In this document: piece after piece, positions 21,961 to 59,066 of the stretch
Numbering within the stretch: the stretch's first letter is position 1
How the letters are laid out: each line of letters opens with the position of its first letter
Assembly: GCA_017303535.1 (NCBI GenBank)
Contig: JAFLCO010000001.1
Location: forward strand, 7,446 to 71,445
DNA: 64,000 bases
Direction of reading: 5' to 3'
Source: Planctomycetota bacterium
Lineage (GTDB): Bacteria > Planctomycetota > Planctomycetia > Pirellulales > PNKZ01
Translations under genes and position numbers: made by a program
The notes under the pieces: model-generated
What the model was told of the DNA's origin: nothing
Database searches by the model: none
What the model saw: only the letters and a program-made list of their open reading frames with translations

Positions 21961-21962
21961 CC

Positions 21963-26460: not shown

Positions 26461-26483
26461 CAGATCGTCGTATCGACGCCGCA

Positions 26484-26516: not shown

Positions 26517-26565
26517 CCGGGCTTGTACCACCAACCCCTCTCCCACCGGGAGACTGCGTTGTTTG

Positions 26566-26610: not shown

Positions 26611-26652
26611 CGGTGCGTAAAGGTTGGTTATGGTGATTCATGGTCATGGACC

Positions 26653-26829: not shown

Positions 26830-26900
26830 TCGACGCCCAAGCGCGCAGCGGCGCATCACGTAGTTTCCCAAATCCGGACCACCGATTCCAATCACTTTTT

Positions 26901-29189: not shown

Positions 29190-30422
29190 ATGGCCGATCC
29201 TTATTTTCAGTCGCGTTTTGCCGATCGCATTGGGGGCCCTAACTACGGTAAGGGGACCGAGATCTATAAGTTTGAGAAGATCAAGCGGGCCAAGCGCAAG
29301 GCGCTGGCCGATCATCCCGAGCGGTCGCTTGTCGACTTCGGCATCGGCGAGAACGACGAGATGGCGCCGGAAGGGGTGCGGCGCGTGTTGACGGAAGAAG
29401 CCAACAAGCCGGAGAACCGGGGCTACGCCGACAACGGCATCGCGGCCTATAAGGAAGCCGCGGCTCGCTTCATGCAGCGGCAGTTCGGCGTAGCGCTCGA
29501 TCCCGTCAAGGAAATCAATCACTGCATCGGCACCAAGACGGCCCTGGCCATGCTGCCGGCGGCGTTCATCAACCCGGGCGACGTCACGCTGATGACCGTG
29601 CCGGGCTATCCGGTTGCCGGCACGCACACGAAGTACTACGGCGGCGAAGTCCACCGGCTGCCGCTCTTGGCGAAGAACAACTTCTTCCCGGACCTCGACA
29701 ACATTCCGGCCGACGTTCTGCGCCGCACGAAGCTGCTCGTGCTTTGCTACCCGAACAGCCCGACCGGTAAGACGGCCACCGTCGACTTCTACAAGCGGGC
29801 CATTGATTTCGCGCAGAAGAACAACGTGGTGATCGTGCAAGACGCGGCCCACGCGCTGCTCTCGTACGATCAAGAGCCGACGAGCTTCCTGCAGGTGCCG
29901 GGCGCGAAGGAAGTCGGCGTCGAGGTGCACTCGATGTCGAAGGGGTTCCACATGATCGGATGGCGGATGGGCTTCGTCGCCGGTCATCCGCTGATCGTGC
30001 AGGCCTTCGCCGACGTGAAAGACAACAGCGACTCGGGCCAGTTCATGGCCGTGCAAAAAGCGGCGGCCGCGGCGCTGGACGACGCGAGCATTCCGAAGAT
30101 CGTTCGTGACAAGTATCGTCGCCGCTTAAAGAAGCTGGTCGACGTGCTCAAGCGGTGCGGCTTCGAGTGTGAGATGCCGGGCGGAACGTACTTCCTCTAC
30201 ACGCCCGCGCCGAAGGGCTTAGCCGACGGAACGAAGTTTGAAACCGGCGAAGCGGCGAGCCAGTACCTGATCACGCAGCACTCGATCGTGACGGTGCCGT
30301 GGGACGACGCCGGCCCGCACTTGCGGTTCTCGGTGACGTACGAAGCGGCCGACGAAGCCGCGGAAGACTCGCTAATGCGCACCACGGAAGAACGGCTGAA
30401 GAAGATCCAGCCGGTGTTTTGA
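29190..30422 (+). CDS. dapL: LL-diaminopimelate aminotransferase
   Basis: 410 aa. A class I/II aminotransferase with the DapL-type N-terminus MADPYFQSRFADRIGGPNYGKGTEIYKFEKIKRAKR, NPGDVTLMTVPGYP and SMSKGFHMIGWRMG (PLP lysine). Confidence 0.88.
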   Translation: MADPYFQSRFADRIGGPNYGKGTEIYKFEKIKRAKRKALADHPERSLVDFGIGENDEMAPEGVRRVLTEEANKPENRGYADNGIAAYKEAAARFMQRQFGVALDPVKEINHCIGTKTALAMLPAAFINPGDVTLMTVPGYPVAGTHTKYYGGEVHRLPLLAKNNFFPDLDNIPADVLRRTKLLVLCYPNSPTGKTATVDFYKRAIDFAQKNNVVIVQDAAHALLSYDQEPTSFLQVPGAKEVGVEVHSMSKGFHMIGWRMGFVAGHPLIVQAFADVKDNSDSGQFMAVQKAAAAALDDASIPKIVRDKYRRRLKKLVDVLKRCGFECEMPGGTYFLYTPAPKGLADGTKFETGEAASQYLITQHSIVTVPWDDAGPHLRFSVTYEAADEAAEDSLMRTTEERLKKIQPVF

Positions 30423-33056: not shown

Positions 33057-33242
33057 CCAAGCCTGAGAAGTCGTCAACTTGTTCTATTGAGCAGCGTCGC
33101 TGTTCAAACGCCTGGATTGCCGTCCGATCGTTCCCCCGTCCGTTTCGTTTGCCGCCCGCACACACAATCCACGCCTGCCTGATTTCGGCTTAATTGCTTT
33201 GCCATCGCAAGTGAATTGAGTCATTTACGGAGAGTCGTAAGT

Positions 33243-39007: not shown

Positions 39008-39409
39008 GGGGCACCTAGGTGGAGGGGACGTCGTGAAGTGAGGCGGACCGTCGGAAGAAACCGCGCCGCCGGACCTTCCAAACCCCGCCGCGACGGCCGA
39101 GTTTCGCGGGCATCGCGACGGCCCGTTCTCTTCGGTCGCGCGAAGAAGCGTCCGGTTGAGGCGGCGGCCGCGCTCGAAATCGTCCGGCCTGGGCGAAATT
39201 CCCGGCAAAACCGGCGAACTTTACCGCGAAACGCCTGTCATAATTCAGAATTCGGGCTCCGTCCGCCGCCGTCGGCCCGTTGTCAATTTGCCCCCTGCGG
39301 TTTAAGGTAAATTGTTTGCCCACACGGGCTTGGCCTCGACCATCGGGTCGGTCGCCGCCTTTCCGTCAGCCGCCGTTTTTCGTCCCCTTTCAGCCTGCGA
39401 GATTCCGCC

Positions 39410-41194
39410 GTGGCCACGATCGCCAAGCCTGCCGCCGCCAAACCTGCCGCCGCCGTCGAACTGATGTGCGGGGCCGACATCGTTATCGAGTCGCTCATTC
39501 GGCACGGCGTCGACGTTATGTTCGCCTACCCGGGCGGGGCGAGCATGCCGCTGCACCAATCGCTGGTGAAGTACAAGGACAAGATTCGCACGATCCTGCC
39601 GCGCCACGAACAAGGGGGCGGTTTCGCGGCCCAAGGCTATACGCGCAGCACCGGCAAGGTCAGCGTTTGCATGGCCACAAGCGGCCCGGGCGCGACGAAC
39701 CTCGTGACCGTGATCGCCGACGCCAAGCTCGACAGCATCCCGCTCATCGCGATCACCGGCCAAGTGAAGACGCCGGTCATCGGCAGCGACGCGTTTCAAG
39801 AAACTCCGATGGTCGAAGTTTGTCGCGGTATCACGAAGCATCATTACTTGGTGACCGACGTCGCCGACTTGGCCCGCGTGATGAAGGAAGCGTTCCACAT
39901 TGCGACGACCGGCCGGCCGGGCCCGGTACTGATTGATATTCCGAAAGACGTGCAGCAGTTTGAAACCAAGGTCGATTTCGACTGCCCGATGAACTTGCCG
40001 GGCTATCACGTTGAAGATCGCAAAGCAAAGCCGGAAGAAATCAAGGCCGTGGCCGCCGCGATCAAGCGGGCCAAGAAGCCGGTGATCTACGCCGGCGGCG
40101 GCATCATCGCGGGCGAGGCGTCGGAAGAACTTCGCACGCTCGTGAAGAAGACCGGTATCCCCGTGGCCATGACCTTGATGGGCCTCGGCGCGTATCCGGG
40201 CGACGACAAGCTCTCGCTCGACATGCTCGGCATGCACGGCAGCGTGTACTCGAACTACGCCGTGGAATCGTGCGACCTGTTGTTGGCGTTCGGCGTGCGG
40301 TTCGACGACCGCGTCACCGGCAAGCTCGCGGAGTTCGCCAAGCACGCGGTGATCGTGCATATCGACATCGATCCGTCGGAGCTTCACAAGAACAAGCCGG
40401 CGCACATCGGCATCACGAGCGACATCAAGTTCGCGCTGGCCGAGTTGAACAAGATCGTCGAAGCGCCGACCGGCCTGGAGCCGTGGCTCAAGCAAGTGCA
40501 GGAATGGAAGACGACGTATCCGTACAAGTACGACAAGTCGTTCCCCGGCATCACGGCCCAATACGCGCTCAGCGAACTTGATCGGCTGATCAAGGATCGC
40601 GAGGCGATCGTCGCCGTGGGCGTCGGCCAGCATCAGATGTGGGCCGCGCAGTGGCTGAAATTCCGCAAACCCCGCACCTGGCTGTCGAGCAGCGGGCTGG
40701 GCACGATGGGCTTCGGCTTGCCGGCGGCGATGGGGGCCAAGGTCGCGCATCCGGATAAGCTCTGCTTCGACATCGACGGCGACGGCAGCTTCCAGATGAA
40801 CATTCAGGAACTCGGCACCTGCGTCTGCGAGAAGATTCCGGTGAAGGTGCTGCTGCTCAACAACCAGCATCTCGGCATGGTCGTGCAGTGGGAAGATCGC
40901 TTCCACGACGCGACTCGCGCCCACACGTACCTCGGCCCGGTCGATCATCCGGAAGCGGCCGGCAAAGGTGACGGGCTTGGCAATCCCGAGCGTTATCCGA
41001 ACTTCGTGCAGATCGCCAAGGGCTACGGCTGGGGCGCTCGCTTCGTGAACAAGAAGGAAGACCTCGCGGCGGCCCTGCAGGAAATGATCGACTACGACGG
41101 TCCGTTCTTGCTCGACGTGCAAACGCCGTATCAAGAGCACGTGCTGCCGATGATCCCGGCCGGCATGACGGTCCGCGATTTGATCAACGACTAA
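39410..41194 (+). CDS. ilvB: Acetolactate synthase (biosynthetic) large subunit
   Basis: GTG start, 594 aa. Motifs [36 protein letters not shown] and the TPP motif [15 protein letters not shown]...DGDGSFQMN. Confidence 0.95.
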
Positions 41195-41206
41195 CGCAGT
41201 CGCCTC

Positions 41207-42097
41207 GTGAACCGCGAATCGCTCCTCGTCATCGGTGCGTCGTCGCTTGTCGGGCGACGTCTCGTCGAGTTGCTGGCGCAGGAGCCGTACGCCGAGCGGC
41301 ATGCGGCTCGGTTTACGTCGAGCAAGCCTCGTGACGGTCGCTTGCTACTGGATTTATCTCGGCCCAATGACTTTGCGCCGGACGAGCCGCCGACGACCGT
41401 GGTCTTCTGTTGCCCGATCCGCATGGTCTCGACCGAGGCCCTCACGCGATTGCACGTGCTTGGCATGCGAAGAGTCGTCGCCTTCTCGTCGACGAGCCGG
41501 TTTACGAAAACCGACTCCGCCGAACCGGCCGAACGCGCGGCGGCCGACGACCTCATCGCGGCGGAAGACCGATTGACGACGTTCGCCCGAGCGCACGGCG
41601 TCGGCTACACGATTCTCCGCCCGACGATCATCTACGACGAAGGCTTCGACAAGAACATCACGCGCATCGCCGCCTTCATCCGGCGGTTCGGCTTCTTCAT
41701 CGTCTGCGGCCGTGCCGACGGCTTGCGGCAACCGGTTCATGCCCGGGACTTGGCCCGGGCCGTTCTGCAGACGCTTGAGCACGACGCGGCACACAATCAA
41801 GCGTACGAGCTAAGCGGCGGAGAAACGCTGACTTACCGTGAGATGGTGCGGCGTGTTTTTGAGGGGCTCGGCCGGCCGCCGCGCATCATCTCTTTGCCGG
41901 CGTTGGCCTGGCGTGTCGGGTTCAGCATGCTCGGCCTTGCTCGCCGTCGCCGAACATCGCTGCAGGAAAACGTGCAAATGGCCCTGCGGATGAACAAAGA
42001 CATGATCTTTGATCACGGGGCGGCGACGCGCGATTTCGGCTATTCGCCGGTCGAATTCCGACCGCAATTTGGCCCGCCGGCTCCACCGCCGCGGTAA
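41207..42097 (+). CDS. NAD(P)-binding epimerase/dehydratase (SDR-type) family protein
   Basis: GTG start. LLVIGASSLVGRRLVELL Rossmann N-terminus. 296 aa. Confidence 0.65.
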   Translation: MNRESLLVIGASSLVGRRLVELLAQEPYAERHAARFTSSKPRDGRLLLDLSRPNDFAPDEPPTTVVFCCPIRMVSTEALTRLHVLGMRRVVAFSSTSRFTKTDSAEPAERAAADDLIAAEDRLTTFARAHGVGYTILRPTIIYDEGFDKNITRIAAFIRRFGFFIVCGRADGLRQPVHARDLARAVLQTLEHDAAHNQAYELSGGETLTYREMVRRVFEGLGRPPRIISLPALAWRVGFSMLGLARRRRTSLQENVQMALRMNKDMIFDHGAATRDFGYSPVEFRPQFGPPAPPPR

Positions 42098-45482: not shown

Positions 45483-46334
45483 CTACTTCGACGACGTCGG
45501 CGAAAGCGGCCGCGGTTGATAGAAGACCGATCGGCAGTGATGCTTCGGCGCAAATTCCGGGCCGATATCGAGCAACGACTCCGACGAGCCGACGAACAGA
45601 TAGCCGCCCGCATAGAGTTGCTGCTTCAAACGCAGAAAGAGACTCTTTCGAGCCGCGGCCGTGAAATAAATCGCGACGTTACGGCAAAAAATCACGTCGA
45701 ACGTGCCGACGTTCGGAAACGGCTCCAATAGATTGAGCTTGCGAAACGAGGTCAGGGCCCGCACGTCGTCGCGCACGCGCCAGCCGGCGGCGTCACGAAC
45801 GAAGTGGTTTTGCCGAGCGCCTGCGGAGACGCCCCGTTCCATCTCGAAGTTCGTGAAATATCCGCGCGACGCCGCTTGCACGGCGGCGTCCGACACGTCG
45901 GTGCCGAGAATTTGAACGTCCCATTTAGGCAGGTCGGGGATGAGTTCGCGGAGCACCATCACGATGCTATAGGCTTCCTGGCCCGTACTGCACGCGGCCG
46001 ACCAGATACGCAGCCGCCGTGGAGTCGTCGACTTTGCTTTGGCGTCGATCAGTTCCGGCAGCGTCTTGTGCCGCAGCGCCTCGAACGGGGCGGCGTCGCG
46101 AAAGAAAAGGGTTTCGTTCGTCGTGATCGCGTCGATGATGCGGCGATGCAACGATTCATCCCGCTGCGTGCGGGCCTTCTGCGCCAGCTCGTAGTACGTC
46201 GATGCGCCCGCGGCTCGGAGCAGCGGCGCGAGCCGGCTCTCGATCAGATAGCCCTTAGTTTCGTCCAATACGATACCGCAGAGATCGAGCACCAGGGAGC
46301 CGACGGCTTCGATGTCGTCTTTGGTTATCGGCAT
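45483..46334 (-). CDS. cheR: Chemotaxis protein methyltransferase CheR
   Basis: 283 aa. TTNETLFFRD and the SAM motif IWSAACSTGQEAYSI. Overlaps the cheB stop by 10 nt. Confidence 0.9.
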   Translation of the reverse strand: MPITKDDIEAVGSLVLDLCGIVLDETKGYLIESRLAPLLRAAGASTYYELAQKARTQRDESLHRRIIDAITTNETLFFRDAAPFEALRHKTLPELIDAKAKSTTPRRLRIWSAACSTGQEAYSIVMVLRELIPDLPKWDVQILGTDVSDAAVQAASRGYFTNFEMERGVSAGARQNHFVRDAAGWRVRDDVRALTSFRKLNLLEPFPNVGTFDVIFCRNVAIYFTAAARKSLFLRLKQQLYAGGYLFVGSSESLLDIGPEFAPKHHCRSVFYQPRPLSPTSSK

Positions 46335-47398
46335 ACCGCCTCCCGCCGCCGCGTGAACAGCGTGATTTGCTCGGCAATCTTATTAAGTGGGGCCACGACG
46401 TCGACCAAGGCTTCGGCGATCGGCTGGGCCGGCATTCCGAAGACGACGCACGTCGCTTCGTCCTGGGCGATAATCGGCGCGCCGAGCCGCTTGAGTTCGC
46501 GCAGTCCTTTGGTTCCGTCGGAGCCCATGCCCGTCATAATTACGGCGAGCGTTCGTGCGCCGCAGATCTTCGCCGCGGAACGAAACAAATAGTCGACGGC
46601 CGGCCGGCAACTGTTCTCGGGCGGGTCGTCGGAGAGTCGAACGACGAAGTGCGGCGGTTGTCGCTCGATGCGCATGTGTCGTCCGCCGGGAGCGATGACG
46701 ATTTCGCCCGGACCGACGAGCTGGGAATCGACCCCCTCGCTGACGCGTAGACGGCAGCGTTTGTCGAGATCGTCGGCCAGTGATTTGGTGAAAAGCGGCG
46801 GCATGTGCTGAACGACGAACATCGGCACCGGCAGATCGGCCGGAAGTTGCGGCAGCATTTTGCCGAGCGCTTCGGGACCACCCGTGGAGATACCCAGGCA
46901 GACGACCTCGGGCGGCGAACGTTTGACGTCGCCTTCTGCGGCCGTCGTAATCGACGGGCCTGACTGGGCGGGCAAGGCCCGTCGACGACGAGCGTGGAAC
47001 GCCGCGACTTTTTCCGTGAGTTCGGCCGCCAGCAGCGCGTGATTTGCCGCCACGTCGGGGCCGGAGGGCTTGAGAACGAAGTCGAACGCCCCGAGCGAAA
47101 GGGCTTCCATGGTCGTCGCCGCGCCGCCCGAGGTGAAAGCGCTGAGCATCACCACGCCGACGCGTCGGTCGAGAACGCGCAACCGCCGCAGCAACTGCAC
47201 GCCGTCGAGTTCGGGCATCTCGACGTCGAGCGTGATCAGGTCCGGGCGCAACTCCTGAATTTTGTCCAACGCGGCGCGACCGTTGGCCGCCGCGCTGACG
47301 ACTTCAACGTCGGGCATCGAGCGAAGCGTCTCAGCGACGATCTTGCGGTAAATCGCGGCGTCGTCGACGACGAGAACTTTTAACGGGGCGGACATCAT
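46325..47398 (-). CDS. cheB: Chemotaxis response regulator protein-glutamate methylesterase CheB
   Basis: 357 aa. REC domain (VLVVDD...DLITLDVEMPELDG) plus a methylesterase domain (ISTGGPEAL, FVVQHMPP, GMGSDG). Confidence 0.9.
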   Translation of the reverse strand: MMSAPLKVLVVDDAAIYRKIVAETLRSMPDVEVVSAAANGRAALDKIQELRPDLITLDVEMPELDGVQLLRRLRVLDRRVGVVMLSAFTSGGAATTMEALSLGAFDFVLKPSGPDVAANHALLAAELTEKVAAFHARRRRALPAQSGPSITTAAEGDVKRSPPEVVCLGISTGGPEALGKMLPQLPADLPVPMFVVQHMPPLFTKSLADDLDKRCRLRVSEGVDSQLVGPGEIVIAPGGRHMRIERQPPHFVVRLSDDPPENSCRPAVDYLFRSAAKICGARTLAVIMTGMGSDGTKGLRELKRLGAPIIAQDEATCVVFGMPAQPIAEALVDVVAPLNKIAEQITLFTRRREAVCR

Positions 47399-47479
47399 GA
47401 ATTGCGCGGGATATTCGGTCGTGGTGCGAGTCGAGAAAAGCCGCCGCCGCGGCGACGTCGCCGCGGCGGCGCGGCGGGA

Positions 47480-49531
47480 TCAGACCTGGAACTGTCCGAC
47501 CATCGATTGCAACTGCGAGGCCATGGCCGACAACTGACCGCCGGACTGCTTCGTATGCGAAGCTCCGACCGCCGTTTGTTGAGCGGCTTGATCCACGCCG
47601 TTGATGTTCTGCGTGATTTCCTGGCAAGCCGACGCCGACTCGGCGACGTTGCGGGAAACCGTCGCCGCGACCGTGGAGGTTTCGGCGACGTTGCGCGAAA
47701 TCTCTTTCGTGGCGATGCTTTGCTCTTCCACCGCCGCGGCGATGGAGCGGGCCACTTCGTTCACGTTTTTGATGGCCGTGCTGATGAGCCCGATGACGCG
47801 GACGGTCTCGTTCGTCGAGCCTTGCATTCCTTGAATGCGTTGGCGGATCGTATCGGTGGCGGCCGCCGATTGTTTGGCCAACTCCTTGACTTCGGTCGCC
47901 ACGACGGCGAATCCCTTGCCCGCTTCGCCGGCGCGTGCCGCTTCAATCGTGGCGTTGAGCGCCAGCAGGTTCGTCTGATCGGCGATGTCCTGAATGACGT
48001 CGATCACCTTGCCGATTTCGTCGGCCGCGATGCCGAGTTGTTGAACCTTGGCGTTGCTTTCCTCGGCCAACGACGCGGCCTCATCGGCGACGCCCGACGA
48101 ACGCTCGGCGTTCTTGGCGATTTCTCCGACGCTGGCGGTCATTTCCTCGATCGCGGCGGCGACGGTCTTGACGTTGGCCGACATCTGCTCGGTCGACGCG
48201 GCCATGGTCCGCATGTTCGTCGACATTTCTTCGGCGGCCGCCGCGACGTTGGCGGACTGGCGCCGAGCGCCGTCGGCTCCGTCGGCCAGTTCGCCGGCGG
48301 TGGTCGTCAATTCGCCCGATGAAGTTCCCAAGGCGGCGGCGTTGCCGACGATCTTACGGATCATTTCTTGAAGTTTGTCGGCCAGGTTATTCACCGAGTT
48401 TCCAAGCACGCCGACTTCGTCGACGCTGGTAACTTGCAAGCGCTGCGTTAGGTCGCCGCCGGCAATTCTGCCCAGCGTGTCGACCGCACGAACTAAAGGG
48501 CGGGAGATGGCCCTCGCGACGATGTAGCCCGCGGCGGCGACGAGCACCGCGGCGATCACGCCGAGCACGACCATGAACTTGGCCAACGAATTGACCGCGG
48601 CGAACGCCTCTTCGGAACTCTGGCGAATTAACACGCCCCAGCCGTAGCCGGGAAAGCCCAGCGCGCCTTTGCCGGCCGCGTAACCGATGACTTGCTCGGT
48701 TTGTTGGCGCGGGCTGACTTCGACCGTGCTGCCGCTCTTGCCCTCGACGATTCCTTCGGCGGCTTCCAGGCCCGCTTCCGCGAGGTTGTATCGCAGAACC
48801 TGATCTTCGGCTTCATCTTCCAGGAGTAGGCCCGACTTGGAAATCACCTGGGCTTGGATGGACTGGTAACCTTTGTCGGCGAGTTTCTTGGTGAGGTCGC
48901 CGACGATTTCGCCGACGACGCGGTCCCACGACGCCCAGTTGCCCCACACGCGGACGACCTTGCCGTCGGCGTCGACGATCGGCGCGGCGAACGCGAGCGA
49001 CAAGCCGCGACCGCGCGTCACGCCGGCCACGCGGCGATCTTCGGACAGGTCGGCGAAGTACGATTGCCCCGGCTTAACGACGCCGGAAGCCACGTCATCG
49101 AACCACCGTTCTCCCTTGACGCTCTTGCCCAGCAAGTGCGCGGTGTCGACAGGCTTTCCTTCCCGGTCGACCGTGTTGGCGGCGATGATCCGGCCGTCGG
49201 CGTCGGCGACGACCATGAGATCGTAAATACCGTAGGTTTTCGTGTAAAAGTCCGCTGCCTTAGCCACTTCCTTCGTTTCGCCTTGTGCCAGCGGATTGGC
49301 GGCGAAAGCCTGCACGTCGCCGTAGCGTTCAAAGAGGTTGCGTTCGATCTTGTTGACGGTTTCCTCCGCCACGACTTGCACGCGATTGCCCGTCTCCTTG
49401 GCAAGAGCATCTCGCGAACGTTGGTAGGCGCTGTAGCCGATGACGGCGGCAGGCACCAACCCCATCATCAGAAAGCAAACGAGCAGCTTGGCGCCCAAGC
49501 TCTTGAAGCGAAAACGAGATTGTGCGGACAT
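47480..49531 (-). CDS. Methyl-accepting chemotaxis protein with periplasmic Cache-like sensor and HAMP
   Basis: 683 aa. Two TM segments, HAMP, and the highly conserved signalling hairpin [35 protein letters not shown]. Confidence 0.9.
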
Positions 49532-49612
49532 GAAAGTATCTCCCGAGAGGTGCGATGAAAAAAGCGAAATGAGAATCAGAACGATATCGAGCGTGCGCCT
49601 TGCGCGGCGCGG

Positions 49613-50125
49613 TCAGTGCGAACGTGAAGAGACGCGGGGGGCCGAAGGTTTCGCATCGACGTCGTGGCCGGCGAGCGACATCGTCCGTTCGACGTCGAGA
49701 ATCGCCAGCAATCCGTGATCGAGCTTGAAAACGCCTTGAAAGAACTCGCCGTCGGCGCCTGTTAGGTTTTCCGGCAGCGGATGGATCTGTTCGGCGTCGA
49801 CGACGATGACGTCGGATACGCGATCGGCCAGCAAGCCGATCTGCTCGCCGTCGGCATGCACGATGATGTTGCGACGCTCGCGCGAAGGCGCCGAAGCCGG
49901 CAGCCCGAGCACCGTTCGCAGGTCGACGATCGTGACCACGTCGCCCCGCAGGTTGATCACGCCGCAAACGGCCTGCGCGGCATGCGGCACGACGGTCAGG
50001 TTCCAATTGCGATTGATTTCGCGAACGCGGCGGATATCGATGCCGAGCAGCAACTCGCCGACGACGAATGATACGAACTGCAATTCGCCGGCGGGGCTAC
50101 GCGTCAACACGGCTTGGTCGCTCAT
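49613..50125 (-). CDS. cheW: Chemotaxis coupling protein CheW
   Basis: 170 aa. FVSFVVGELLLGIDIRRVREI...GVINLRGDVVTIVDLR. Confidence 0.9.
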   Translation of the reverse strand: MSDQAVLTRSPAGELQFVSFVVGELLLGIDIRRVREINRNWNLTVVPHAAQAVCGVINLRGDVVTIVDLRTVLGLPASAPSRERRNIIVHADGEQIGLLADRVSDVIVVDAEQIHPLPENLTGADGEFFQGVFKLDHGLLAILDVERTMSLAGHDVDAKPSAPRVSSRSH

Positions 50126-50216
50126 AGTGATTCATTCCGAAAACAAGGGTGACATGTCGAAGTCCGGGCGCACCGCAGGCCGCAAAATCGGCCTGGCGGC
50201 GCAAGAACCGGAGAGA

Positions 50217-52829
50217 TTAGGTGGCCACGAGCGCCGGACGGCGGTGCTCGCGCGACGCTTCCTTGAGCAATCGCGACACGGCGCCGAGCAGTTGGTCGCG
50301 ATCCATTTTCACTTGATACTCGTCGACGCCGGCGGCCGAACCGCGATCGACGTCTTCCTGACCGGCTAGAGACGTGAGCGCGATGACCGGCAAATTCGTG
50401 AAGCGCTCCTCGTCCTTGATCCGACGACAAAGTTCAAATCCGTTCAGCCGCGGCATTTCGACGTCGGTGACGACCAGATCATACGGCTCGAGCGATTCGT
50501 TGAGTTCGTCCCAAGCGGCCTGCCCGTCTTCGCAACCGACCGTCTCATGGCCGTGCGATTCGAGAAATACCGTAACTTGGCGACGAAAGAATTCGGAATC
50601 TTCCGCCAACAGAATTCGCGACTTGCGACCCGCTGCGCCCGAGGGCCGCGCGGCGGCGCGGGCCAGTTCCGGATGCGCCAGGCCGGCGAGTTCGAACACG
50701 TCGATGATTCGCGTCGCCTTGCGATCGATCACGACGGAGCCGATTACGCCCGGCTCGCGCAGCGTCGCCGTGTCGGCCCCGGTCGAAAGCTCGACGATGT
50801 CGAGGATATTCGGAACGATGAGGCCGAGTTCCCGCCCCTCGAACTCGAACACCAGAACCGACAGCCGTTGCTGATTCGGTCGCGGCTTCACTCGCAGATG
50901 CCGGTGCATGCTGATGAGCGGTAGCGACGAGTCGCGGTACGTCAGAAACTCCTTCTCGCCGATCATCTCCAATTGGTCTGCGCGAATTCGCTCGATGCGG
51001 CGGATCACGGCCATCGGCACGGCGAAACGTTCGTCGGCGGCGTTCGTAAATAACAAAGCCGGCTGTGTTTCATGTCGGGGTTGTTTGTTTTGGTCTTCCT
51101 CGTTCGACGTCCCCGCATTCGAGTTCGACAGATGCGAATGCCCGGCGATTCCGGCGACGTCGAGGATGAGGGCCACGCGGCCGTCGCCGAGCACCGTGGC
51201 GCCGGCGAGACAACGGCAGTTCTTCAAGTGCCGCCCGAGCGGTTTGACGACGATTTCCTCGGAGTCATGAAGACCGTCGACGGCCAAGCCGTAGCGCAGT
51301 TGATCCGCCTCCACGACGATGACGTTCATGGCGTCGACGGCGTTTGTCGAGGCGACGGAGCACGCTGTGAGCGTGTCGCGCAAGCGGAGTAACGGCAGCA
51401 ATCTGCCGCGCAACCGCAGAACCTCGCGACCGTTGATCCGCTCGACCGGTACGGCGGATTCGCCCGCCTTCACGCGTACCAGTTCGACGATATGGTTCTG
51501 CGGAATCGCAAAGCGCTCGTCGCCGACGTGGACGATGAGCGACGGGATGATCGCCAGCGTCAGCGGCAACTGCACTTGAATGGTCGTGCCCGCTCCCGAT
51601 CGGCTTTCGACGTCGACTGCCCCGCCGATCTTTTCGATGTTGGTTCGCACGACGTCCATGCCGACGCCGCGCCCGCTGACTTCGCTGACCTTCTCCGCCG
51701 TGGAGAGCCCCGGGTGGAAGATGAGCCGCATCGCTTCGCGTTCCGGCATTTCGGACGCTTGTTCGACGGTGAGAATGCCCGCCGCGATCGCCTTCTGTTT
51801 GACCTTGTCGGTATTGATTCCGGCGCCGTCGTCGACGATCGAAATCAGAACCTTGCCGGCTTGATGGCGGGCGGTTAGATGAATCGTTCCGGAGGCCGGC
51901 TTGCCGCGTCGAACGCGATCTTCCGGACGCTCGACGCCGTGATCGAGGGAGTTGCGCACAAGGTGCGTGAGCGGATCTCCGATGGCCTCGAGAATCGTCT
52001 TGTCAAGTTCGACTTCATTGCCTTCGACGACCAGTCGACACTGTTTGCCGAGCAGACCGCTTAAGTCGCGAACTACGCGCGAGAAGCGACTGAAAACTGT
52101 GCCGATCGGCTGCATGCGGGAGTGCATGACCGCCTCCTGCAACTCGCTCGTGATCTGATCGATGCGGGCCGACACGGCGTCGAGGCAAGCGGCGTCGCGA
52201 CTTTCGACGACCTGCAATAGTTGATTGCGGCCGAGAACCAGTTCGCCGGCTAACGTCATGAGTCGATCAAGAATGGCGACCGAAACTCGAATACTCTTTT
52301 CGCCGCCCGCCGGGGATGAAGACGCCGCGGATTTCGCCGCCGACGATTCGTCGGATGACCCTCTTTCGCCCAAATCCTCGCAGGCCACCGGTATCGACGG
52401 CTCCTGGCGCGCCGTGGGTTGATCTTCGGAGTTAAGGGCTCCCTCACGGCTTGCAAGTGCCTGCAGTTCTTGAACATGCGACGAAATGTCGACGTCGTTC
52501 GAATGCTCGACGTCTTGCAGCATACCGCGCAGGCAATCGACGGCCCGCAGCATCGCATCGGTGGTTCGATGCGAAGTCGCAAGTTCGCGAGTTCGCTGCA
52601 AGTTCAGCAGGTTTTCCAACTCGTGGGATAGGTCGCTGATGCGCTCGAATCCCAAGAATCCCGCCGCACCTTTGGTCGAATGCACGGCGCGAAACACGGT
52701 GTTCACAAGTTCGACGTCGAGATTCGCGCCGGCGGCCTCGATGTCGAGCAACCGACGTTCGACGTCGGACAGATGCTCGAGCGACTCGGTCACGAACTCT
52801 TGTGTGAGATCAGAATCGTTGTGCGACAT
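50217..52829 (-). CDS. cheA: Hybrid chemotaxis histidine kinase CheA (Hpt-dimerisation-HATPase-2xCheW-like-REC)
   Basis: 870 aa. Hpt motif FRAVHSTKGAAGFLG. The HATPase boxes are present (HLVRNSLDHG, DDGAGI, GRGVGMD). There are two CheW-like segments (ERFAIPQNHIVEL, ERFAVPMAVIRRI) and a C-terminal receiver (ILLAEDS...DLVVTDVEMPRLNG). Confidence 0.9.
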   Translation of the reverse strand: MSHNDSDLTQEFVTESLEHLSDVERRLLDIEAAGANLDVELVNTVFRAVHSTKGAAGFLGFERISDLSHELENLLNLQRTRELATSHRTTDAMLRAVDCLRGMLQDVEHSNDVDISSHVQELQALASREGALNSEDQPTARQEPSIPVACEDLGERGSSDESSAAKSAASSSPAGGEKSIRVSVAILDRLMTLAGELVLGRNQLLQVVESRDAACLDAVSARIDQITSELQEAVMHSRMQPIGTVFSRFSRVVRDLSGLLGKQCRLVVEGNEVELDKTILEAIGDPLTHLVRNSLDHGVERPEDRVRRGKPASGTIHLTARHQAGKVLISIVDDGAGINTDKVKQKAIAAGILTVEQASEMPEREAMRLIFHPGLSTAEKVSEVSGRGVGMDVVRTNIEKIGGAVDVESRSGAGTTIQVQLPLTLAIIPSLIVHVGDERFAIPQNHIVELVRVKAGESAVPVERINGREVLRLRGRLLPLLRLRDTLTACSVASTNAVDAMNVIVVEADQLRYGLAVDGLHDSEEIVVKPLGRHLKNCRCLAGATVLGDGRVALILDVAGIAGHSHLSNSNAGTSNEEDQNKQPRHETQPALLFTNAADERFAVPMAVIRRIERIRADQLEMIGEKEFLTYRDSSLPLISMHRHLRVKPRPNQQRLSVLVFEFEGRELGLIVPNILDIVELSTGADTATLREPGVIGSVVIDRKATRIIDVFELAGLAHPELARAAARPSGAAGRKSRILLAEDSEFFRRQVTVFLESHGHETVGCEDGQAAWDELNESLEPYDLVVTDVEMPRLNGFELCRRIKDEERFTNLPVIALTSLAGQEDVDRGSAAGVDEYQVKMDRDQLLGAVSRLLKEASREHRRPALVAT

Positions 52830-53474: not shown

Positions 53475-53822
53475 TTATTTCCAGGGAGCGCGGATGTAGT
53501 ACGTGCCGAATTGGTTCGTGTCCGTCGGTTGCACCGGCTGCGGTTGGAACGGGCCGCCGATAAATGTGCCGTCGGCGCGACCCGACGGGCCGTACTGGTG
53601 GCTGATGATCGAATGCCGGGTGCCCGAGGCGCCCCACGTGTAGTCGATCTGCCGATGTACGGTCGGCGGCACGACCATCGCGTGAGGCACGCCGGCCCAC
53701 TGCGGATCGTAGTAATTGCCGTGCCACGAGCCGCGATGGCGGAACACGCCCGCCTCCGCCACGTTCGAGATCAGGCAGCAAACGAGCGCCGCCAACGTCA
53801 CGCGCATAACGAATGTCTTCAT
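53475..53822 (-). CDS. Small secreted protein (115 aa), aromatic/His/Pro-rich
   Basis: Internal ATG 53822: MKTFVMRVTLAALVCCLISNVAEA signal. The mature part is GVFRHRGSWHGNYYDPQWAGVPHAMVVPPTV..., followed by a terminator. Confidence 0.5.
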   Translation of the reverse strand: MKTFVMRVTLAALVCCLISNVAEAGVFRHRGSWHGNYYDPQWAGVPHAMVVPPTVHRQIDYTWGASGTRHSIISHQYGPSGRADGTFIGGPFQPQPVQPTDTNQFGTYYIRAPWK

Positions 53823-53886
53823 CCTGCTTGCTCCTCGATCTTCGGGCTTACGGCATCGCGGGCTTTTGGCGTCGCGGGCTTGTGGG

Positions 53887-54198
53887 TTACCAGTAATAGG
53901 CGCGGGTCGTCGTGCGGCCGCCGCCGGGATGCGGGCGACGATAAACGTCGTAATGCGACCACATGAACTTGTGCGGGTAGAACGGCTGGTAGGTGTGCCA
54001 GGTGTTGCCGACCCAGCCCGGCACCGGTACCGGCGCGGGATACATCCGCGAGCCGATCGAGCCGTGGTCTTCGTAGTATTGCTGCGAGATGCCCGGCGCC
54101 GGTTGAGCGATGCCGTATTGCGCTTGGGCTTCGTCGGTCGTCGCAAATAAAGCGGCGGCCAGCGCCATGGCCGGCAGCGCGCGACGCAAAATCAACAT
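53887..54198 (-). CDS. Small secreted protein (103 aa), aromatic/His/Pro-rich
   Basis: MLILRRALPAMALAAALFATTDEAQA signal. The mature part is rich in Y/W/H/P and ends ...RAYYW. Confidence 0.5.
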   Translation of the reverse strand: MLILRRALPAMALAAALFATTDEAQAQYGIAQPAPGISQQYYEDHGSIGSRMYPAPVPVPGWVGNTWHTYQPFYPHKFMWSHYDVYRRPHPGGGRTTTRAYYW

Positions 54199-54415
54199 GG
54201 CGGCGAACTCCGTTAGTTTCGTTCTGGCGTTAAGGCTCGCCGCGGCCGATCTTCGGCTGCGAACGTCGCGCTGGGCGAAGCGTCCTGCCTCGCACGTTCT
54301 CTAAACTCGGCCGGCCGCACGAGGTGGGGTCAAACTTTGTGTCCCGCCTGTAACAACCGGAACCGCCGTAACGACTGCACGCGTCGCTCGCAAAACGCCG
54401 ACGGCATAAGTCGAC

Positions 54416-54445
54416 TTGGGGCCGGCGGGGGTTGCCGACTATAAT
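54416..54445 (+). promoter_or_regulatory. Candidate sigma70-type promoter upstream of top6B
   Basis: TTGGGG-N18-TATAAT. A perfect -10 hexamer in a ~64% GC background, ~160 nt upstream of ATG 54608. Sequence pattern only. Confidence 0.25.
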
Positions 54446-54607
54446 CCGCAAAGTTTACGCATCCTCGGCAGATCGCCAACGGGGCCGTTTCACCCAAGCG
54501 TGCCTGTTGCAAAGACCGAAACTTGAGGTCGGCGGCAACGATGTTCGCCCGTATCCTCAATGCCACGTTTGCCTTACGGAGATTCCGGTTTGACACCGTC
54601 GCCCGCT

Positions 54608-56713
54608 ATGCCCGCCCAAAGTCGCAAGGCCAAGCCCGAAAAAAAGTCTGGAAAGTCCTCGAAGTCGAAGCCTGAAGCGGATGCGGTCGAAGCAAAGGCC
54701 GCGACCAACGGCGAAGCGCCGACCGCGGAACCTGTGCCGAAAGCCGCTCCGGCCAAGCGCCGCAGCACGGCCGAGAAGATGGCCGAGGGACAGCGCGATA
54801 TTTCCGTCAGCGAGTTCTTCGCCAAGAACCGCCACCTGCTCGGCTTCGACAATCCGCGCAAGGCGCTGCTGACCACGGTGAAGGAAGCGGTCGACAACTC
54901 GCTCGACGCCTGCGAAGAGGCCGGCATCCTTCCGGAGATCTGGGTGCACCTCGAACAGACCGGCCCGACACGATTCAAAATCGGCATCCAAGACAATGGG
55001 CCGGGCATCGTCAAGAAACAGATCCCGCTGATCTTCGGCAAGCTGTTGTACGGTTCGAAGTTTCATCGTTTGCGGATGAGCCGCGGTCAACAAGGGATCG
55101 GCATCAGTGCCGCCGGCATGTACGGCGTGCTCACCACGGGTAAGCCGGTCAAGATCATCAGCAAGATCGGCAAGAAGCATCCGGCACACTACTACGAAAT
55201 CCAGATCAACACGAAGACCAACGATCCGGAAATCTTGAACGGCAAGGGAGAAGGAGTCGACATCGCATCCGGCGCGAAGATGCAAGCCGACCTCGAGAAG
55301 CACAAAGTCGAGTGGGTCGCCGTTAACGACGCGGGCGAAGAACTCGAAAGCGGCACGCGTGTGACGATCGAACTCGAGGCGATCTACAAGCGCGGGCGCG
55401 GCAGCATCGACGAGTACCTGGAGCAAACGGCGATCGCCAACCCGCACGTGCGGATTCATTTCAAGGATTCGGAGAACAACGAGCGGCTGTTCGAACGCTC
55501 GGCCACGACCTTGCCGCCGGAACCGAAGGAAATTAAGCCGCATCCGTACGGCATCGAACTCGGCCGCCTAATTGCGATGCTCAAAGACACGCGCGAAACG
55601 ACGTTGAGCGCGTTCTTGTCGAGCAGTTTTTCACGCGTCAGTTCCGGTGCGGCGAAGAAGATTTGCGACGCCGCGAAGGTCAGCACGCGGATGTCGCCGA
55701 GCAAGGCCGGCCGTCACGAGGCCGAAGAGTTATTCAAGGCACTGCAAGAAGCGAAGCTCCCGCCGCCGGCGACGGATTGCATCTCGCCGATCGGTGAAGA
55801 ACTGTTGCTCAAGGGCCTGCATCAGGTCGTGCCCGGCGAATTCTACGCCGCCGCCACACGCCCGCCGGCCGTGTATCGCGGGAATCCGTTTCAGATCGAA
55901 GCGGCGCTGGCCTTCGGCGGCTCTCCCGCGGCACAGCGCGTTTCGCTCGACGCGTTGACCGAACTGTTGTCGCAAAGCGATGCACGGACATTGCGGCAGT
56001 TCTTAACGAGCAACTTCGCCGGCCTTGGCAGCGACGCGGCCGACAAGATCATCGCCGAAGCCGAATTTGGAGCACGGCAATCGCCGGGCAAACTGAAGAA
56101 AGACGAGATCGCCAAGCTCCACGAAGCGATGCGGAGCGTGAACCTCGACGATGGACAAACGATGAACGTCCTGCGGTACGCCAACCGCGTGCCGTTGCAG
56201 TTTCAGTTGTCGGCTTGCGCGATCACGCAAACGATTATGCAAACCAACTGGCGCTCGTACGGCATCACGCAATCGCGCAATGCCTTGCCGAGCGGGCCGA
56301 TTTCGCTGATGGTGCATATCGCCAGCGTTTGGGTTCCATTTACGAGCGAAAGCAAGGAAGCCGTCGCAAGTTATCCGGAAATTCAGAAAGAGATCCGGCT
56401 GGCAATCCAGACGGTCGGGCGGAAACTCGGCATGTTTCTCCGTCGCCGATTGGAAGTGAAAGCCGAAGGAGAGCGACGCAACGTGTTCTTGCGATATCTC
56501 GGCGAAGTGGCGGACGCCGTGAGCGACATCCGTGACGCCGAGGATCAACGCGACGAACTCTACAACCAACTTCTGGAAGTCGCCAAGAAGAAGACGGCTC
56601 AAGCCGACGCCAAGTACGACAACCGCGGCAAGAAGATCGAAGACGCCGACGACTTGGAGAACGACAAGAGCGTGCTGATTATTCCTCGTGAAGAACCGGC
56701 CGCCGCCAAGTAG
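54608..56713 (+). CDS. top6B: DNA topoisomerase VI subunit B (GHKL ATPase) with Lys/Pro/Ala-rich N-terminal extension
   Basis: ATG 54608. QRDISVSEFFAKNRHLLGFDNPRKALLTTVKEAVDNSLDA (N-box), IQDNGPGI (G1) and SRGQQGIGISAA (G2). The H2TH/transducer regions follow. Confidence 0.9.
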   Translation: MPAQSRKAKPEKKSGKSSKSKPEADAVEAKAATNGEAPTAEPVPKAAPAKRRSTAEKMAEGQRDISVSEFFAKNRHLLGFDNPRKALLTTVKEAVDNSLDACEEAGILPEIWVHLEQTGPTRFKIGIQDNGPGIVKKQIPLIFGKLLYGSKFHRLRMSRGQQGIGISAAGMYGVLTTGKPVKIISKIGKKHPAHYYEIQINTKTNDPEILNGKGEGVDIASGAKMQADLEKHKVEWVAVNDAGEELESGTRVTIELEAIYKRGRGSIDEYLEQTAIANPHVRIHFKDSENNERLFERSATTLPPEPKEIKPHPYGIELGRLIAMLKDTRETTLSAFLSSSFSRVSSGAAKKICDAAKVSTRMSPSKAGRHEAEELFKALQEAKLPPPATDCISPIGEELLLKGLHQVVPGEFYAAATRPPAVYRGNPFQIEAALAFGGSPAAQRVSLDALTELLSQSDARTLRQFLTSNFAGLGSDAADKIIAEAEFGARQSPGKLKKDEIAKLHEAMRSVNLDDGQTMNVLRYANRVPLQFQLSACAITQTIMQTNWRSYGITQSRNALPSGPISLMVHIASVWVPFTSESKEAVASYPEIQKEIRLAIQTVGRKLGMFLRRRLEVKAEGERRNVFLRYLGEVADAVSDIRDAEDQRDELYNQLLEVAKKKTAQADAKYDNRGKKIEDADDLENDKSVLIIPREEPAAAK

Positions 56714-56755
56714 CGACGCTTAAGCTTTCCCGACACACCTGATACCGATAAGACG

Positions 56756-57910
56756 ATGGCCAAGAAACCGAAGAAGAATGCGGGCGAAAAGAAAGCCGCT
56801 AAGCCCACAGACCTTTCACCGCGCGACAAGAAAACGCTGGGCTCGCTCGTGACGGTCGCCGTCGACGTCGTCGAGGCGGCCCAAAAGAAAAGAGATCCGC
56901 AACTCGCGATTCCTTTGCGTGCCCTCTCGAACGTCAAGTTCAACAAGACCAAGCGCATGATCGAGATGGGCTCGGCCAAAAACGCGCGGCAATTGTTCAA
57001 CCTGAACCAAGCCAAGTCGTACATGCAGTCGCTGCTCGTGGCCAAGGGCTGCAAGCAACTCATCTACGACAACAAGAATTGCAGCCTGCGAAGCTTGTAC
57101 TACATGCTCAAGCACACGATCGCAGGCACCAAGGAAGAAACCTTCGCCGGTCAGGAAGAGTGCGATCCGATCATCGAAGATATGGAAGTGACGCTCAACG
57201 CGTTGCGCGAAGAGTTGCATCTCTTCGCCGAGAATCGCGGCAACATCGCCGGGCCGATCGTCGTCACCGACAAAGGCTTCGACATCGACTGCGCCCGCAT
57301 GGGTTCCGCCGGTTACAGCATTCCGTCGATCATGGAACCCGACCGGATTCAGTTCAAGAAGTGCACCGCCGACTTCGTCCTGCACGTCGAAAAAGGTACG
57401 GTTTGGAATCGCTTCAACGAAGATGAGTTCTGGAAGAAGCATAACTGCCTGATCACGCACGGCATGGGCCAGCCCCCGCGCGGCGTCCGGCGGATGTTGT
57501 ATCGGCTTAACAACGAACTCAAGCTGCCGGTCTATTGCCTGCTCGATAACGACCCGTGGGGGTACTACATCTACAGCGTCATCAAGCAGGGCTCGATCAA
57601 CCTCGCCTTTGAGAGCACGCGGATGGCGGTGCCCGACGCGAAGTTCATCGGTATTCGCTCGATGGACGTCGATCGTTACCAGCTTTCGGACAGCGTCAAA
57701 ATCAAGCTGAACGACACGGACATCAAGCGGGCGAACCAAGTCCGCAACTACCCGTGGTTCAAGGATAAGAAGCCGTGGCAGAAAGAGGTCGAGACGATGC
57801 TCGCCAACGGCATCAAGCTCGAAGTGGAAGCCCTGACGAGCAAGTCGCTCAGCTTCGTGACGGAGACGTACGTGCCCGCTCGGCTGAAGGATAAAGACTG
57901 GCTCGATTAG
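56756..57910 (+). CDS. top6A: DNA topoisomerase VI subunit A (Spo11/Top6A)
   Basis: 384 aa. Catalytic-Tyr region LRSLYYMLK. Toprim motifs FVLHVEKGTVW and YCLLDNDPWGYYIY. Confidence 0.9.
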   Translation: MAKKPKKNAGEKKAAKPTDLSPRDKKTLGSLVTVAVDVVEAAQKKRDPQLAIPLRALSNVKFNKTKRMIEMGSAKNARQLFNLNQAKSYMQSLLVAKGCKQLIYDNKNCSLRSLYYMLKHTIAGTKEETFAGQEECDPIIEDMEVTLNALREELHLFAENRGNIAGPIVVTDKGFDIDCARMGSAGYSIPSIMEPDRIQFKKCTADFVLHVEKGTVWNRFNEDEFWKKHNCLITHGMGQPPRGVRRMLYRLNNELKLPVYCLLDNDPWGYYIYSVIKQGSINLAFESTRMAVPDAKFIGIRSMDVDRYQLSDSVKIKLNDTDIKRANQVRNYPWFKDKKPWQKEVETMLANGIKLEVEALTSKSLSFVTETYVPARLKDKDWLD

Positions 57911-57995
57911 AAGTCGTCGCGGCTGTTTCTACGGTCGGTCTTCGTCGCGAGAGCGGCCGGCGTTTTTAGATGCCGGCCGCTACAATGCCCCCACG

Positions 57996-59066
57996 ATGAC
58001 TCCTTCGTTGTGGGCCGACATCGCCGTGTTTCCGTACGAGCCGCCGCTGGTGACGGTCATCGTCCTCTCGTTGTTCTTGCTATTCATGGGAGCCTGCGTC
58101 GGCAGTTTTCTCAACGTCGTCATCTACCGTGTGCCGGCGGGCCTAAGCATCGTAAAGCCGCGTTCGCGCTGCCCGCGCTGCCTGACGCCGATTCTCGGCC
58201 GCGACAACGTTCCCGTCATCGGCTGGCTCGTGCTTCGCGGACGTTGCCGCTTCTGCCGAACTTGGATACCTGCGCGCTATCCGCTTGTCGAAGCAACGTT
58301 CGGGCTGGCGTTTCTGCTTTTGTGCTGGGGCGAAGCGATTGTGCCCGGCTATACTCTGCCGATCCCCTTCGGCGAAATTGAAGAGTACCCGCTGTTCGGC
58401 ATCGCGGGTTACCACTTCGCGCTCGTCTGCGGCTTGGGCGCTGCGGCGCTAATGACTTACGACGGCGGCGTGGTCCCCGCCGGCTTTTGGCGGGTGATTC
58501 TCGCCATCGGCATGTTGCCGCCGCTGGTTTGGCCGGAGTTGCGACCGATCCCTTTCAGGCCGGACGCGGAACTTTACGGGCGACTGGTCGCCGGCACGGC
58601 GGATGGTGCCATGGGCGCGTTGGTCGGCGCTTTACTCGGCGTCGCCGCTTGGCCGGTTGCGGTGATCGGCGCTCGTGCGCGAAGCGGCCATTTGAACTCG
58701 GTCGCGGCGCTCGCGGCCGTCGGAGCGTTTCTCGGCTGGCAAGCGGTCTTGGCCGTGGCCGGCGTCGTCGCGGCTCTAACGTTGCTGCAGTCTTCGTTAC
58801 GAGGCATCGGCTTCGTCAGTCGGTTTCCCTGGCTCGGGTTCGTCGCAATCACGACGTTCGGGTTTTTGCTCGGCTGGCGCTGGTTCGTCGCGCACAGTCT
58901 TGTCGACAAGACGCGCTGGCTCGGCTCGAAGGCTCCGCTGCTGCTGATTCCGGCCGGGATTGCGGGAACGTTCGCCCTCGCGCTCGCCGCAGGAAAGCTG
59001 CATCGCCCCATTTCGAGATCGACTCCGGCTAACACCTTAAGCACGCCGCCGGCAGCTACGCACTGA
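57996..59066 (+). CDS. Prepilin peptidase-like A24 family membrane protein (PilD-type N-terminal Zn-finger domain, divergent catalytic motifs)
   Basis: CVGSFLNVVIYRVP...CPRCLTPILGRDNVPVIGWLVLRGRCRFCRTWIPARYPLVE is the DiS-P-DiS N-domain. The peptidase part has TYDGGVVP and GTADGAMGAL in place of the canonical GxGDxKL. Confidence 0.65.
   Translation: MTPSLWADIAVFPYEPPLVTVIVLSLFLLFMGACVGSFLNVVIYRVPAGLSIVKPRSRCPRCLTPILGRDNVPVIGWLVLRGRCRFCRTWIPARYPLVEATFGLAFLLLCWGEAIVPGYTLPIPFGEIEEYPLFGIAGYHFALVCGLGAAALMTYDGGVVPAGFWRVILAIGMLPPLVWPELRPIPFRPDAELYGRLVAGTADGAMGALVGALLGVAAWPVAVIGARARSGHLNSVAALAAVGAFLGWQAVLAVAGVVAALTLLQSSLRGIGFVSRFPWLGFVAITTFGFLLGWRWFVAHSLVDKTRWLGSKAPLLLIPAGIAGTFALALAAGKLHRPISRSTPANTLSTPPAATH

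Follow-up and report, generated by a model that had tools for sequence, protein, structure and literature searches.

A 64,000-nucleotide stretch of DNA from a Planctomycetota bacterium (assembly GCA_017303535.1, contig JAFLCO010000001.1, positions 7,446 to 71,445; referred to as a whole as the window) carries two adjacent genes that resemble those for the B and A subunits of topoisomerase VI (topo VI), top6B and top6A. This leads to the question of whether the pair encodes a complete and active type IIB topoisomerase, what distinguishes it from the archaeal enzymes of known structure, and how it came to reside in a bacterial genome. The initial annotation, made from the sequence alone, had taken the Top6B-Top6A pair to be genuine, and this is borne out by profile searches as well as by matches to solved chains. 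In Pfam, Top6B is recognized by Topo-VIb_trans (PF09239, E-value 2e-51) and HATPase_c (1.5e-9), and Top6A by TOP6A-Spo11_Toprim (PF21180, 7.8e-60), TP6A_N (PF04406, 1.2e-13) and Topo_VI_alpha (4.2e-9). Top6B scores 677 bits with the NCBIfam equivalog NF003218 (cut-off 274) and 510 bits with TIGR01052 (cut-off 381), and Top6A scores 547 bits with the equivalog NF003333 (cut-off 465). The best solved chain for Top6B is 2q2e_B from Methanosarcina mazei (E 4.9e-142), and for Top6A it is 2zbk_A from Saccharolobus shibatae (E 4.1e-74).

Functional residues were placed by HMMER alignment to the solved chains and their codons were checked; the definitions of the M. mazei KGRR loop, WKxY motif, stalk and H2TH residues were taken from PMC5922973. 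The N-box, G1 and G2 motifs that had been proposed for Top6B all map onto the solved structures. The N-box residues E93 and N97 correspond to S. shibatae E38 and N42, the G1 box reads D129-N-G131-P-G133 with D129 aligned to S. shibatae D76, and the G2 box is G160-QQ-G163-I-G165. The switch lysine K583 corresponds to S. shibatae K427, the KGRR-loop equivalent K261-R262-G-R264 to M. mazei K186, R188 and R189, and the stalk residue R605 to M. mazei R457. The WKxY motif is represented by N547-W548-R549-S-Y551, compared with K399-W-K401-Q-Y in M. mazei, and R343 and K383 of the H2TH domain take the places of the M. mazei DNA-binding residues K268 and K308. In Top6A, the proposed catalytic-tyrosine region LRSLYY holds R112 and Y116, the latter aligned with S. 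shibatae Y106, and the Toprim metal ligands are E212 and, directly before PWG, D264-N-D266, as expected from the DNDPWG motif that had been pointed out. Residues E93, N97, D129, G131, G133, G160, G163, G165, W548, R549, Y551, K583 and R605 of Top6B are invariant in an 18-sequence family alignment, and R112, Y116, E212, D264 and D266 of Top6A are invariant in all 81 Planctomycetota sequences compared.

Top6B has everything that marks a topo VI B subunit, namely the GHKL motifs, an H2TH domain, a transducer with its switch lysine and scores above the equivalog cut-offs, and Top6A has both marks of an A subunit, a 5Y-CAP domain with the catalytic tyrosine and the Toprim glutamate with the DxD triad. 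Judged by these residues, the two proteins form a complete topo VI that is apparently active, with all catalytic residues present. The profile searches did not fail and neither the catalytic tyrosine nor the Toprim acidic residues are substituted, the two outcomes on which the annotation had been staked. A non-catalytic homologue was considered as well and ruled out, as every catalytic residue is conserved.

The length of Top6B, about 700 residues, had been ascribed to extensions at both termini. Both are present in the 701-residue protein, but two internal insertions had been missed, and Top6B carries four additions in total: an N-terminal extension, an insertion in the GHKL domain, an insertion in the transducer and a C-terminal tail. 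The transducer insertion, at about residues 443 to 513, is a second copy of the H2TH domain nested in the transducer; the canonical domain and this duplicate are called H2TH-1 and H2TH-2 here. Pfam matches residues 447-511 to positions 176-239 of the NFACT_N profile. A direct BLASTP comparison of H2TH-1 with H2TH-2 gave 32% identity over 74 residues (E 2e-10), and hhalign of the two family profiles, each built from 15 family members, gave a probability of 98.6% and an E-value of 4.8e-16 over 68 columns. When the H2TH-2 profile was run against all PDB sequences, it found the S. shibatae Top6B H2TH region (residues about 251-300, E 3e-5), and also plant Fpg, the M. mazei Top6B H2TH domain (residues 241-308) and uS13 ribosomal proteins. 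An AlphaFold2 (AF2) model of the H2TH-2 segment alone has four helices at a predicted local distance difference test score (pLDDT) of 86. Foldseek places M. mazei Top6B first for this model (TMq 0.92, root mean square deviation 1.2 A, 71 columns), followed by S. shibatae Top6B and then by Fpg/MutM/Nei. The full-length Top6B model, computed from an 18-sequence alignment of close homologues, reached a mean pLDDT of 53 and a predicted template modeling score of 0.35 and was consulted for the recurring four-helix pattern alone. The long helix at residues 590-643 is predicted in this low-confidence model only.

H2TH-2 is a feature of one clade. It was found in 120 of the 120 listed homologues and in every related locus whose fetched DNA spans that part of top6B. 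Among representatives of clusters at 50% identity it occurs in one full-length cluster (P0121) plus fragments only, and the next relatives, about 50-59% identical and including a sequence named 'Planctomycetota bacterium' (P0128), do not have it. In a more divergent representative of 725 residues (P0127) the transducer is enlarged at this site too, by an insertion of about the same size, which hhalign compares to H2TH with an E-value of 0.005 and a probability of 7%. Another bacterial Top6B (P0126) has a helical insertion of about 65 residues right after its H2TH domain (alignment columns about 491-558), and in others the position occupied by H2TH-2 in Pirellulales is taken by a short loop of low complexity. 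The H2TH/transducer junction and the transducer loop that carries H2TH-2 look like insertion hot spots. Larger additions are seen elsewhere in the family: many of the 50%-cluster representatives (P0125, P0131, P0134, P0141, P0146, P0155, P0163, P0174, P0195 and P0224) have a Top6B of 1000-1570 residues, and because the H2TH domain lies 700-870 residues from the N terminus in most of them, they appear to bear large extra N-terminal or internal segments, possibly inteins or fusions.

The N-terminal extension of Top6B is rich in lysine, alanine and proline and has a net charge of +7; the alignments of M. mazei and S. shibatae Top6B begin at residue 54 of the query. Across the 120 homologues its sequence is variable and its length ranges from 0 to 111 residues (median 45; median net charge +2), while its composition is conserved, and a conserved RR(R)-x-TA motif closes it, immediately ahead of the N-terminal strap. 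The GHKL insertion of 37 residues makes this site about 27 residues longer than in M. mazei; it is kept at 30-37 residues in homologues of the clade and is lacking in the nearest full-length relatives outside the clade, among those aligned. The C-terminal tail of 58 residues consists of a conserved helical part (LY.QLL.VAKKKTA.AD) and a variable end. Both termini had been suggested to bind DNA or a partner. Of the two, the N-terminal extension is the basic one; the C-terminal tail is net acidic (-4) and in part a conserved helix, and is unlikely to bind DNA. With M. mazei Top6B the alignment runs out near residue 495 of the 621 in that chain, from which it follows that the Ig-like C-terminal domain (CTD) is lacking. 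Top6A also starts with a basic tail, which is variable and of low complexity in the 81 Planctomycetota sequences (median 26 residues, median net charge +5), many of which begin with 'MAKK'. In other bacterial Top6B clusters long Lys/Ala/Pro-rich tails are attached at the C terminus instead, which suggests selection for a basic disordered tail, whatever its attachment site.

Both archaeal enzymes used for the alignments share the catalytic core with the pair described here. The M. mazei enzyme (PDB 2Q2E; cryo-EM 9O0G and others) has the GHKL domain, one H2TH domain, the transducer with its switch lysine, the WKxY motif and stalk, the KGRR-type loop and, in Top6A, the same 5Y-CAP and Toprim chemistry. 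Compared with it, Top6B of the window lacks the Ig-like CTD of about 120 residues and adds the N-terminal extension, the longer GHKL site, the nested second H2TH domain and the short acidic C-terminal tail. In the S. shibatae enzyme (PDB 2ZBK, 1MX0) the catalytic tyrosine, E38/N42 and K427 map one-to-one to Y116, E93/N97 and K583; its Top6B has 530 residues, and the insertions and tails are absent from it. The closest known system is the Pirellulales clade of bacterial topo VI, exemplified by Pirellula staleyi, Thermogutta terrifontis and Lacipirellula parvula, that was described by Allen and Maxwell in 2024 (PMC11302465). That clade, from the bacterial group that includes Planctomycetota (PVC group), agrees with the pair in taxon, in having the same two subunits, in the extra helical module of the transducer and in the lack of an Ig-like CTD, which is reported there for bacterial Top6B, and nothing material differs in kind. 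The transducer insertion is described there as a "unique alpha-helical bundle" and not as a duplicate of H2TH. Identification of the insertion as an H2TH duplicate was not found in the literature searched, in which PMC11302465 was the sole match for H2TH together with Pirellul*. Term searches of that paper, which covered parts of its text, likewise turned up neither the GHKL insertion nor the basic tails at the N termini of the two subunits. The operon and its clade are thus already annotated and published, and recognition of the H2TH duplicate is a small addition.

By homology, Top6A and Top6B would assemble as an A2B2 heterotetramer. Top6A would bind the G-segment duplex and cleave it with Y116 and Mg2+ held by E212, D264 and D266. 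ATP binding is expected to dimerize the GHKL domains of Top6B, with E93 as the general base and N97 as the Mg ligand, and thereby to trap a T-segment, and K583 and the long transducer helix would link hydrolysis of ATP to the gate in the DNA, which opens and lets the T-segment through. ATP-dependent relaxation and decatenation with a 2-nt staggered cut are hallmarks of a topo VI holoenzyme. In M. mazei, H2TH engages the bent G-segment at its distal arms and ties ATP turnover to cleavage (PMC5922973). The second H2TH domain and the basic disordered N-terminal tails of both subunits are most plausibly extra elements of DNA contact, and H2TH-2, if it faces the cavity, might touch the T-segment or add to the stability of bent DNA.

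In the cell, the enzyme would most likely work beside gyrase, decatenating DNA and relaxing positive supercoils, and so fill the place of topo IV. Topo VI is a preferential decatenase (PMC8837201), M. mazei topo VI complements an E. coli parE(ts) mutant according to unpublished data cited in PMC11302465, and the Pirellulaceae, Lacipirellulaceae and Thermoguttaceae are listed there as having GyrA/GyrB but no ParC/ParE. Because of this published absence of topo IV from PVC bacteria that bear topo VI, and because of the preference of topo VI for decatenation, replacement of topo IV in decatenation and positive-supercoil relaxation is the likeliest role. None of the 36 open reading frames (ORFs) looked at, which include most of the longest in the window, encodes GyrA, GyrB, ParC or ParE. 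Taken together we have good confidence that the pair encodes a catalytically competent type IIB topo VI of a resident Pirellulales clade, most likely acting as a decatenase and relaxase beside gyrase. Several points weigh against this reading or parts of it. One of the two lysines of the M. mazei WKxY motif, K399, is replaced by Asn547, giving N-W-R-x-Y. H2TH-2 has T467, G472 and N512 at the positions of R263, K268 and K308, the residues mutated in M. mazei, and DNA binding by H2TH-2 is therefore not implied by simple transfer from that enzyme, as none of the three is basic; it has invariant arginines of its own at R460, R463 and R490, and in this sequence also lysines at 494, 496 and 497. For its position 'in the central cavity' PMC11302465 is the source, the full-length AF2 model being poor. 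The absence of topo IV from this particular genome is an extrapolation from published relatives, and the searched literature yielded no biochemical or genetic work on any Pirellulales topo VI.

If the pair is a working topo VI, it might still be a redundant or specialized type II enzyme on top of gyrase and topo IV, a combination known from some Pseudomonadota and Terrabacteria. We regard this as unlikely. In the survey of PMC11302465 all PVC-group families that bear topo VI are without ParC/ParE, and the 67-98% identity among the best 120 homologues, together with retention throughout the order, suggests an important, non-redundant function. That the complex is not a topoisomerase at all, but a maker of double-strand breaks like Spo11/TopoVIBL or a defense nuclease such as JetD of Wadjet, is thinkable inasmuch as homologues of Top6A do serve in such systems (PMC13040014). 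TopoVIB-like proteins, however, are described in PMC11302465 as lacking H2TH and having degenerate GHKL motifs; in Top6B the GHKL motifs and the switch lysine are intact and H2TH is present twice, both proteins pass the topo VI equivalog cut-offs, and no SMC/Mks or other defense genes were seen among the ORFs scanned beside the operon, which leaves this the least probable of the alternatives, with hardly any weight.

Scarcely more credible is a recent arrival of the pair as cargo of horizontal transfer or as the enzyme of a mobile element, like plasmid-borne topo VIII or Mini-A. Bacterial topo VI is ultimately archaeal by horizontal transfer (PMC11302465), and the total GC content of top6A (0.566; top6B 0.598) lies below the window mean of 0.621. 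The GC content at third codon positions (GC3), on the other hand, is 0.77 and 0.82 in the two genes and 0.74-0.81 in neighboring genes, so that the host-like GC claimed initially holds by this measure, and the lower total GC of the top6 genes is attributable to their Lys/Asn/Asp-rich protein composition. No integrase, transposase, plasmid or other mobile-element genes were found among the ORFs scanned beside the operon, and orthologues occur in hundreds of Planctomycetota species. Topo VIII and Mini-A, type IIB enzymes borne by plasmids, integrated elements or viruses (PMC7671362), have the 5Y-CAP and Toprim chemistry in common with the pair, and topo VIII also the GHKL, H2TH and transducer modules, but topo VIII is usually one fused polypeptide on mobile elements and Mini-A is without a B moiety. 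Here two separate canonical subunits with a full-length B are found in a chromosomal context and above the topo VI equivalog cut-offs. Recent horizontal transfer or a mobile element was rejected on GC3, genomic context and distribution.

The reading of the pair as a resident, catalytically competent topo VI agrees with its distribution. A search with Top6B returned 8000 matches, of which the best 120, 67-98% identical, are nearly all from Pirellulales/Planctomycetota; the best homologues have about 650-770 residues and all named ones are 'DNA topoisomerase VI subunit B [Pirellulales bacterium]'. Relatives of Top6A were detected in at least 575 species genomes when one genome per GTDB species was scanned, and the best 80 genomes (65-88% identity) almost all belong to Pirellulales, Thermoguttaceae, Planctomycetaceae or Planctomycetota. 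Topo VI had been called sporadic in Bacteria, which is correct across the domain but not for Pirellulales/Planctomycetota, where it is widespread. The surroundings are those of an ordinary planctomycete chromosome, with a chemotaxis (Che) cluster at 45483-52829, a Tad pilus cluster at 5442-11488 and, typical of planctomycetes, a PSCyt2/PSD1 protein at 33216-35990. Given this distribution and context and the neighbor-like GC3, the operon is an old conserved resident rather than a sporadic recent import: it is part of a bacterial topo VI clade that has long been resident, is passed on vertically and is under long-term purifying selection.

The linkage of the two genes is less constant than their presence. 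In a survey of related loci, with flanks of up to about 6 kb on each side where available and the upstream side only at eight loci, 36 of the 61 assessable cases have top6B upstream of top6A, with 32-1966 nt between the aligned regions. At some of these linked loci the aligned regions are 0.7-2 kb apart, and at one (L081) a gene for an ABC substrate-binding protein intervenes. At the other 25 loci, including L002, L007, L014, L015, L021, L024, L028, L033, L034, L036 and L042, top6B was not in the fetched flanks of top6A, so that the subunit genes are frequently unlinked in Planctomycetota.

The ultimate source of the pair is archaeal according to PMC11302465, in which both bacterial topo VI subunits fall inside archaeal clades in published trees, at least two ancient transfers from archaea are deduced, and a secondary transfer led from Pirellulales to the dinoflagellate Cladocopium goreaui. 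Compared with solved chains, which span three archaeal species only, Top6B scores far higher with M. mazei (478 bits) than with S. shibatae (249 bits), whereas for Top6A S. shibatae comes first (253 bits), ahead of M. mazei and Methanocaldococcus jannaschii (about 164 bits). These opposite affinities may reflect unequal rates rather than different origins.

A further possibility is that the Pirellulales enzyme forms a subtype among type IIB topoisomerases with a mechanism of its own, in which a cavity-projecting H2TH-2 and the basic tails sense or hold transported or bent DNA in a new way. We consider this doubtful, and its functional consequence is speculation, as is the thought that such a subtype could have evolved as topo VI became the sole dedicated decatenase of bacteria that are without topo IV and that, in the case of many planctomycetes, divide by budding and without FtsZ. 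What the operon mostly does is to confirm the published picture of Pirellulales as carriers of a topo VI of archaeal descent, probably a substitute for the topo IV that they lack. Beyond that, it presents a natural variant, with H2TH copied into the transducer, the Ig-like CTD lost and basic tails gained, as a comparison for how type IIB enzymes recognize DNA crossings and bends, and for biochemistry it offers a topo VI from a bacterium that is probably a mesophile.

The coordinates of the operon and its parts are collected in Table 1, which also confirms the initially noted distance of 42 nt between the genes. The longest ORF for top6B starts at an in-frame alternative ATG at 54560 and runs to 56713 (+; 717 residues); the start at 54608 is internal Met17 of that ORF and gives 701 residues. 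The closest homologue of Top6B (P0001) is also 701 residues long and 98% identical across 100% of the query.

Table 1. Features of the top6B-top6A operon in the window (position 1 is the first nucleotide of the window)
Feature	Coordinates	Strand	Basis
top6B coding sequence, 701 residues plus stop	54608..56713	+	ORF list, Pfam and NCBIfam matches
Top6B N-terminal basic low-complexity extension, residues 1-52	54608..54763	+	No counterpart in M. mazei/S. shibatae Top6B
Top6B GHKL (Bergerat) ATPase domain	54764..55522	+	Alignment to 2q2e_B and 2zbk_B; codons verified
Top6B GHKL insertion, residues 211-247	55238..55348	+	PDB-chain alignment broken between query residues 210 and 248
Top6B canonical H2TH domain (H2TH-1), residues 314-384	55547..55759	+	Alignment to H2TH regions of M. 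mazei (2q2e_B) and S. shibatae (2zbk_B) Top6B
Top6B transducer, first part, residues 385-442	55760..55933	+	Alignment to 2q2e_B residues ~310-372
Top6B H2TH-2 (duplicate of H2TH-1), residues 443-513, within a transducer loop	55934..56146	+	BLASTP, hhalign, AF2/Foldseek
Top6B transducer, second part, and long stalk helix, residues 514-643	56147..56536	+	PF09239 best stretch at residues 515-620; 2q2e_B residues 365-495
Top6B C-terminal tail, residues 644-701, plus stop codon	56537..56713	+	End of M. mazei alignment; family alignment; composition
top6B-top6A spacer, 42 nt	56714..56755	+	ORF coordinates
top6A coding sequence, 384 residues plus stop	56756..57910	+	ORF list, Pfam, NCBIfam, solved-chain alignment
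Top6A N-terminal basic tail (MAKKPKKNAGEKKAAKP...), residues 1-27	56756..56836	+	Comparison of 81 Planctomycetota Top6A sequences
Top6A 5Y-CAP/winged-helix DNA-cleavage domain; R112, catalytic Y116 (codon 57101-57103)	57017..57223	+	PF04406 at residues 88-156
Top6A Toprim domain; metal ligands E212, D264, D266	57374..57886	+	PF21180 at residues 207-377
GC-rich 13-bp hairpin, 42 nt past the top6A stop	57952..57981	+	RNA fold; a terminator scan also chose a site here

The hairpin between top6A and the next gene is perfect (AGCGGCCGGCGTT-TTTA-GATGCCGGCCGCT), and the RNA fold of 57905-58000 has an energy of -43.5 kcal/mol, with a z-score of -3.3 against shuffled sequences. It is possibly a transcription stop or an RNA-stabilizing element, but not a classic intrinsic terminator, as it has no U-tract. 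A promoter scan of 54100-58100 gave nothing that exceeded the shuffled expectation.

Directly downstream of top6A, a gene at 57996-59066 (+) encodes a polytopic membrane protein of 356 residues, for which only the N-terminal domain of prepilin peptidases was matched (A24_N_bact, 1e-31); the catalytic domain Peptidase_A24 gave no match at E <= 0.01. Just upstream of top6B, at 53475-54198 (-), a pair of ORFs that overlap in different reading frames would give small proteins rich in Tyr, Pro and Gly, with hydrophobic segments resembling signal peptides; neither has a Pfam match. Farther away, a 1624-residue ORF at 21797-26671 (-) has no Pfam match at E <= 1e-4, nor do the large ORFs at 12599-14491, 14608-15834, 15932-17206 and 39302-41302 at the same threshold. 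The region 26001-30000 has a GC content of 0.556-0.568, compared with about 0.62 elsewhere, and holds a protein with Schlafen/AlbA_2 and HATPase_c_4 domains (27414-28841); this low-GC stretch may be a foreign island.

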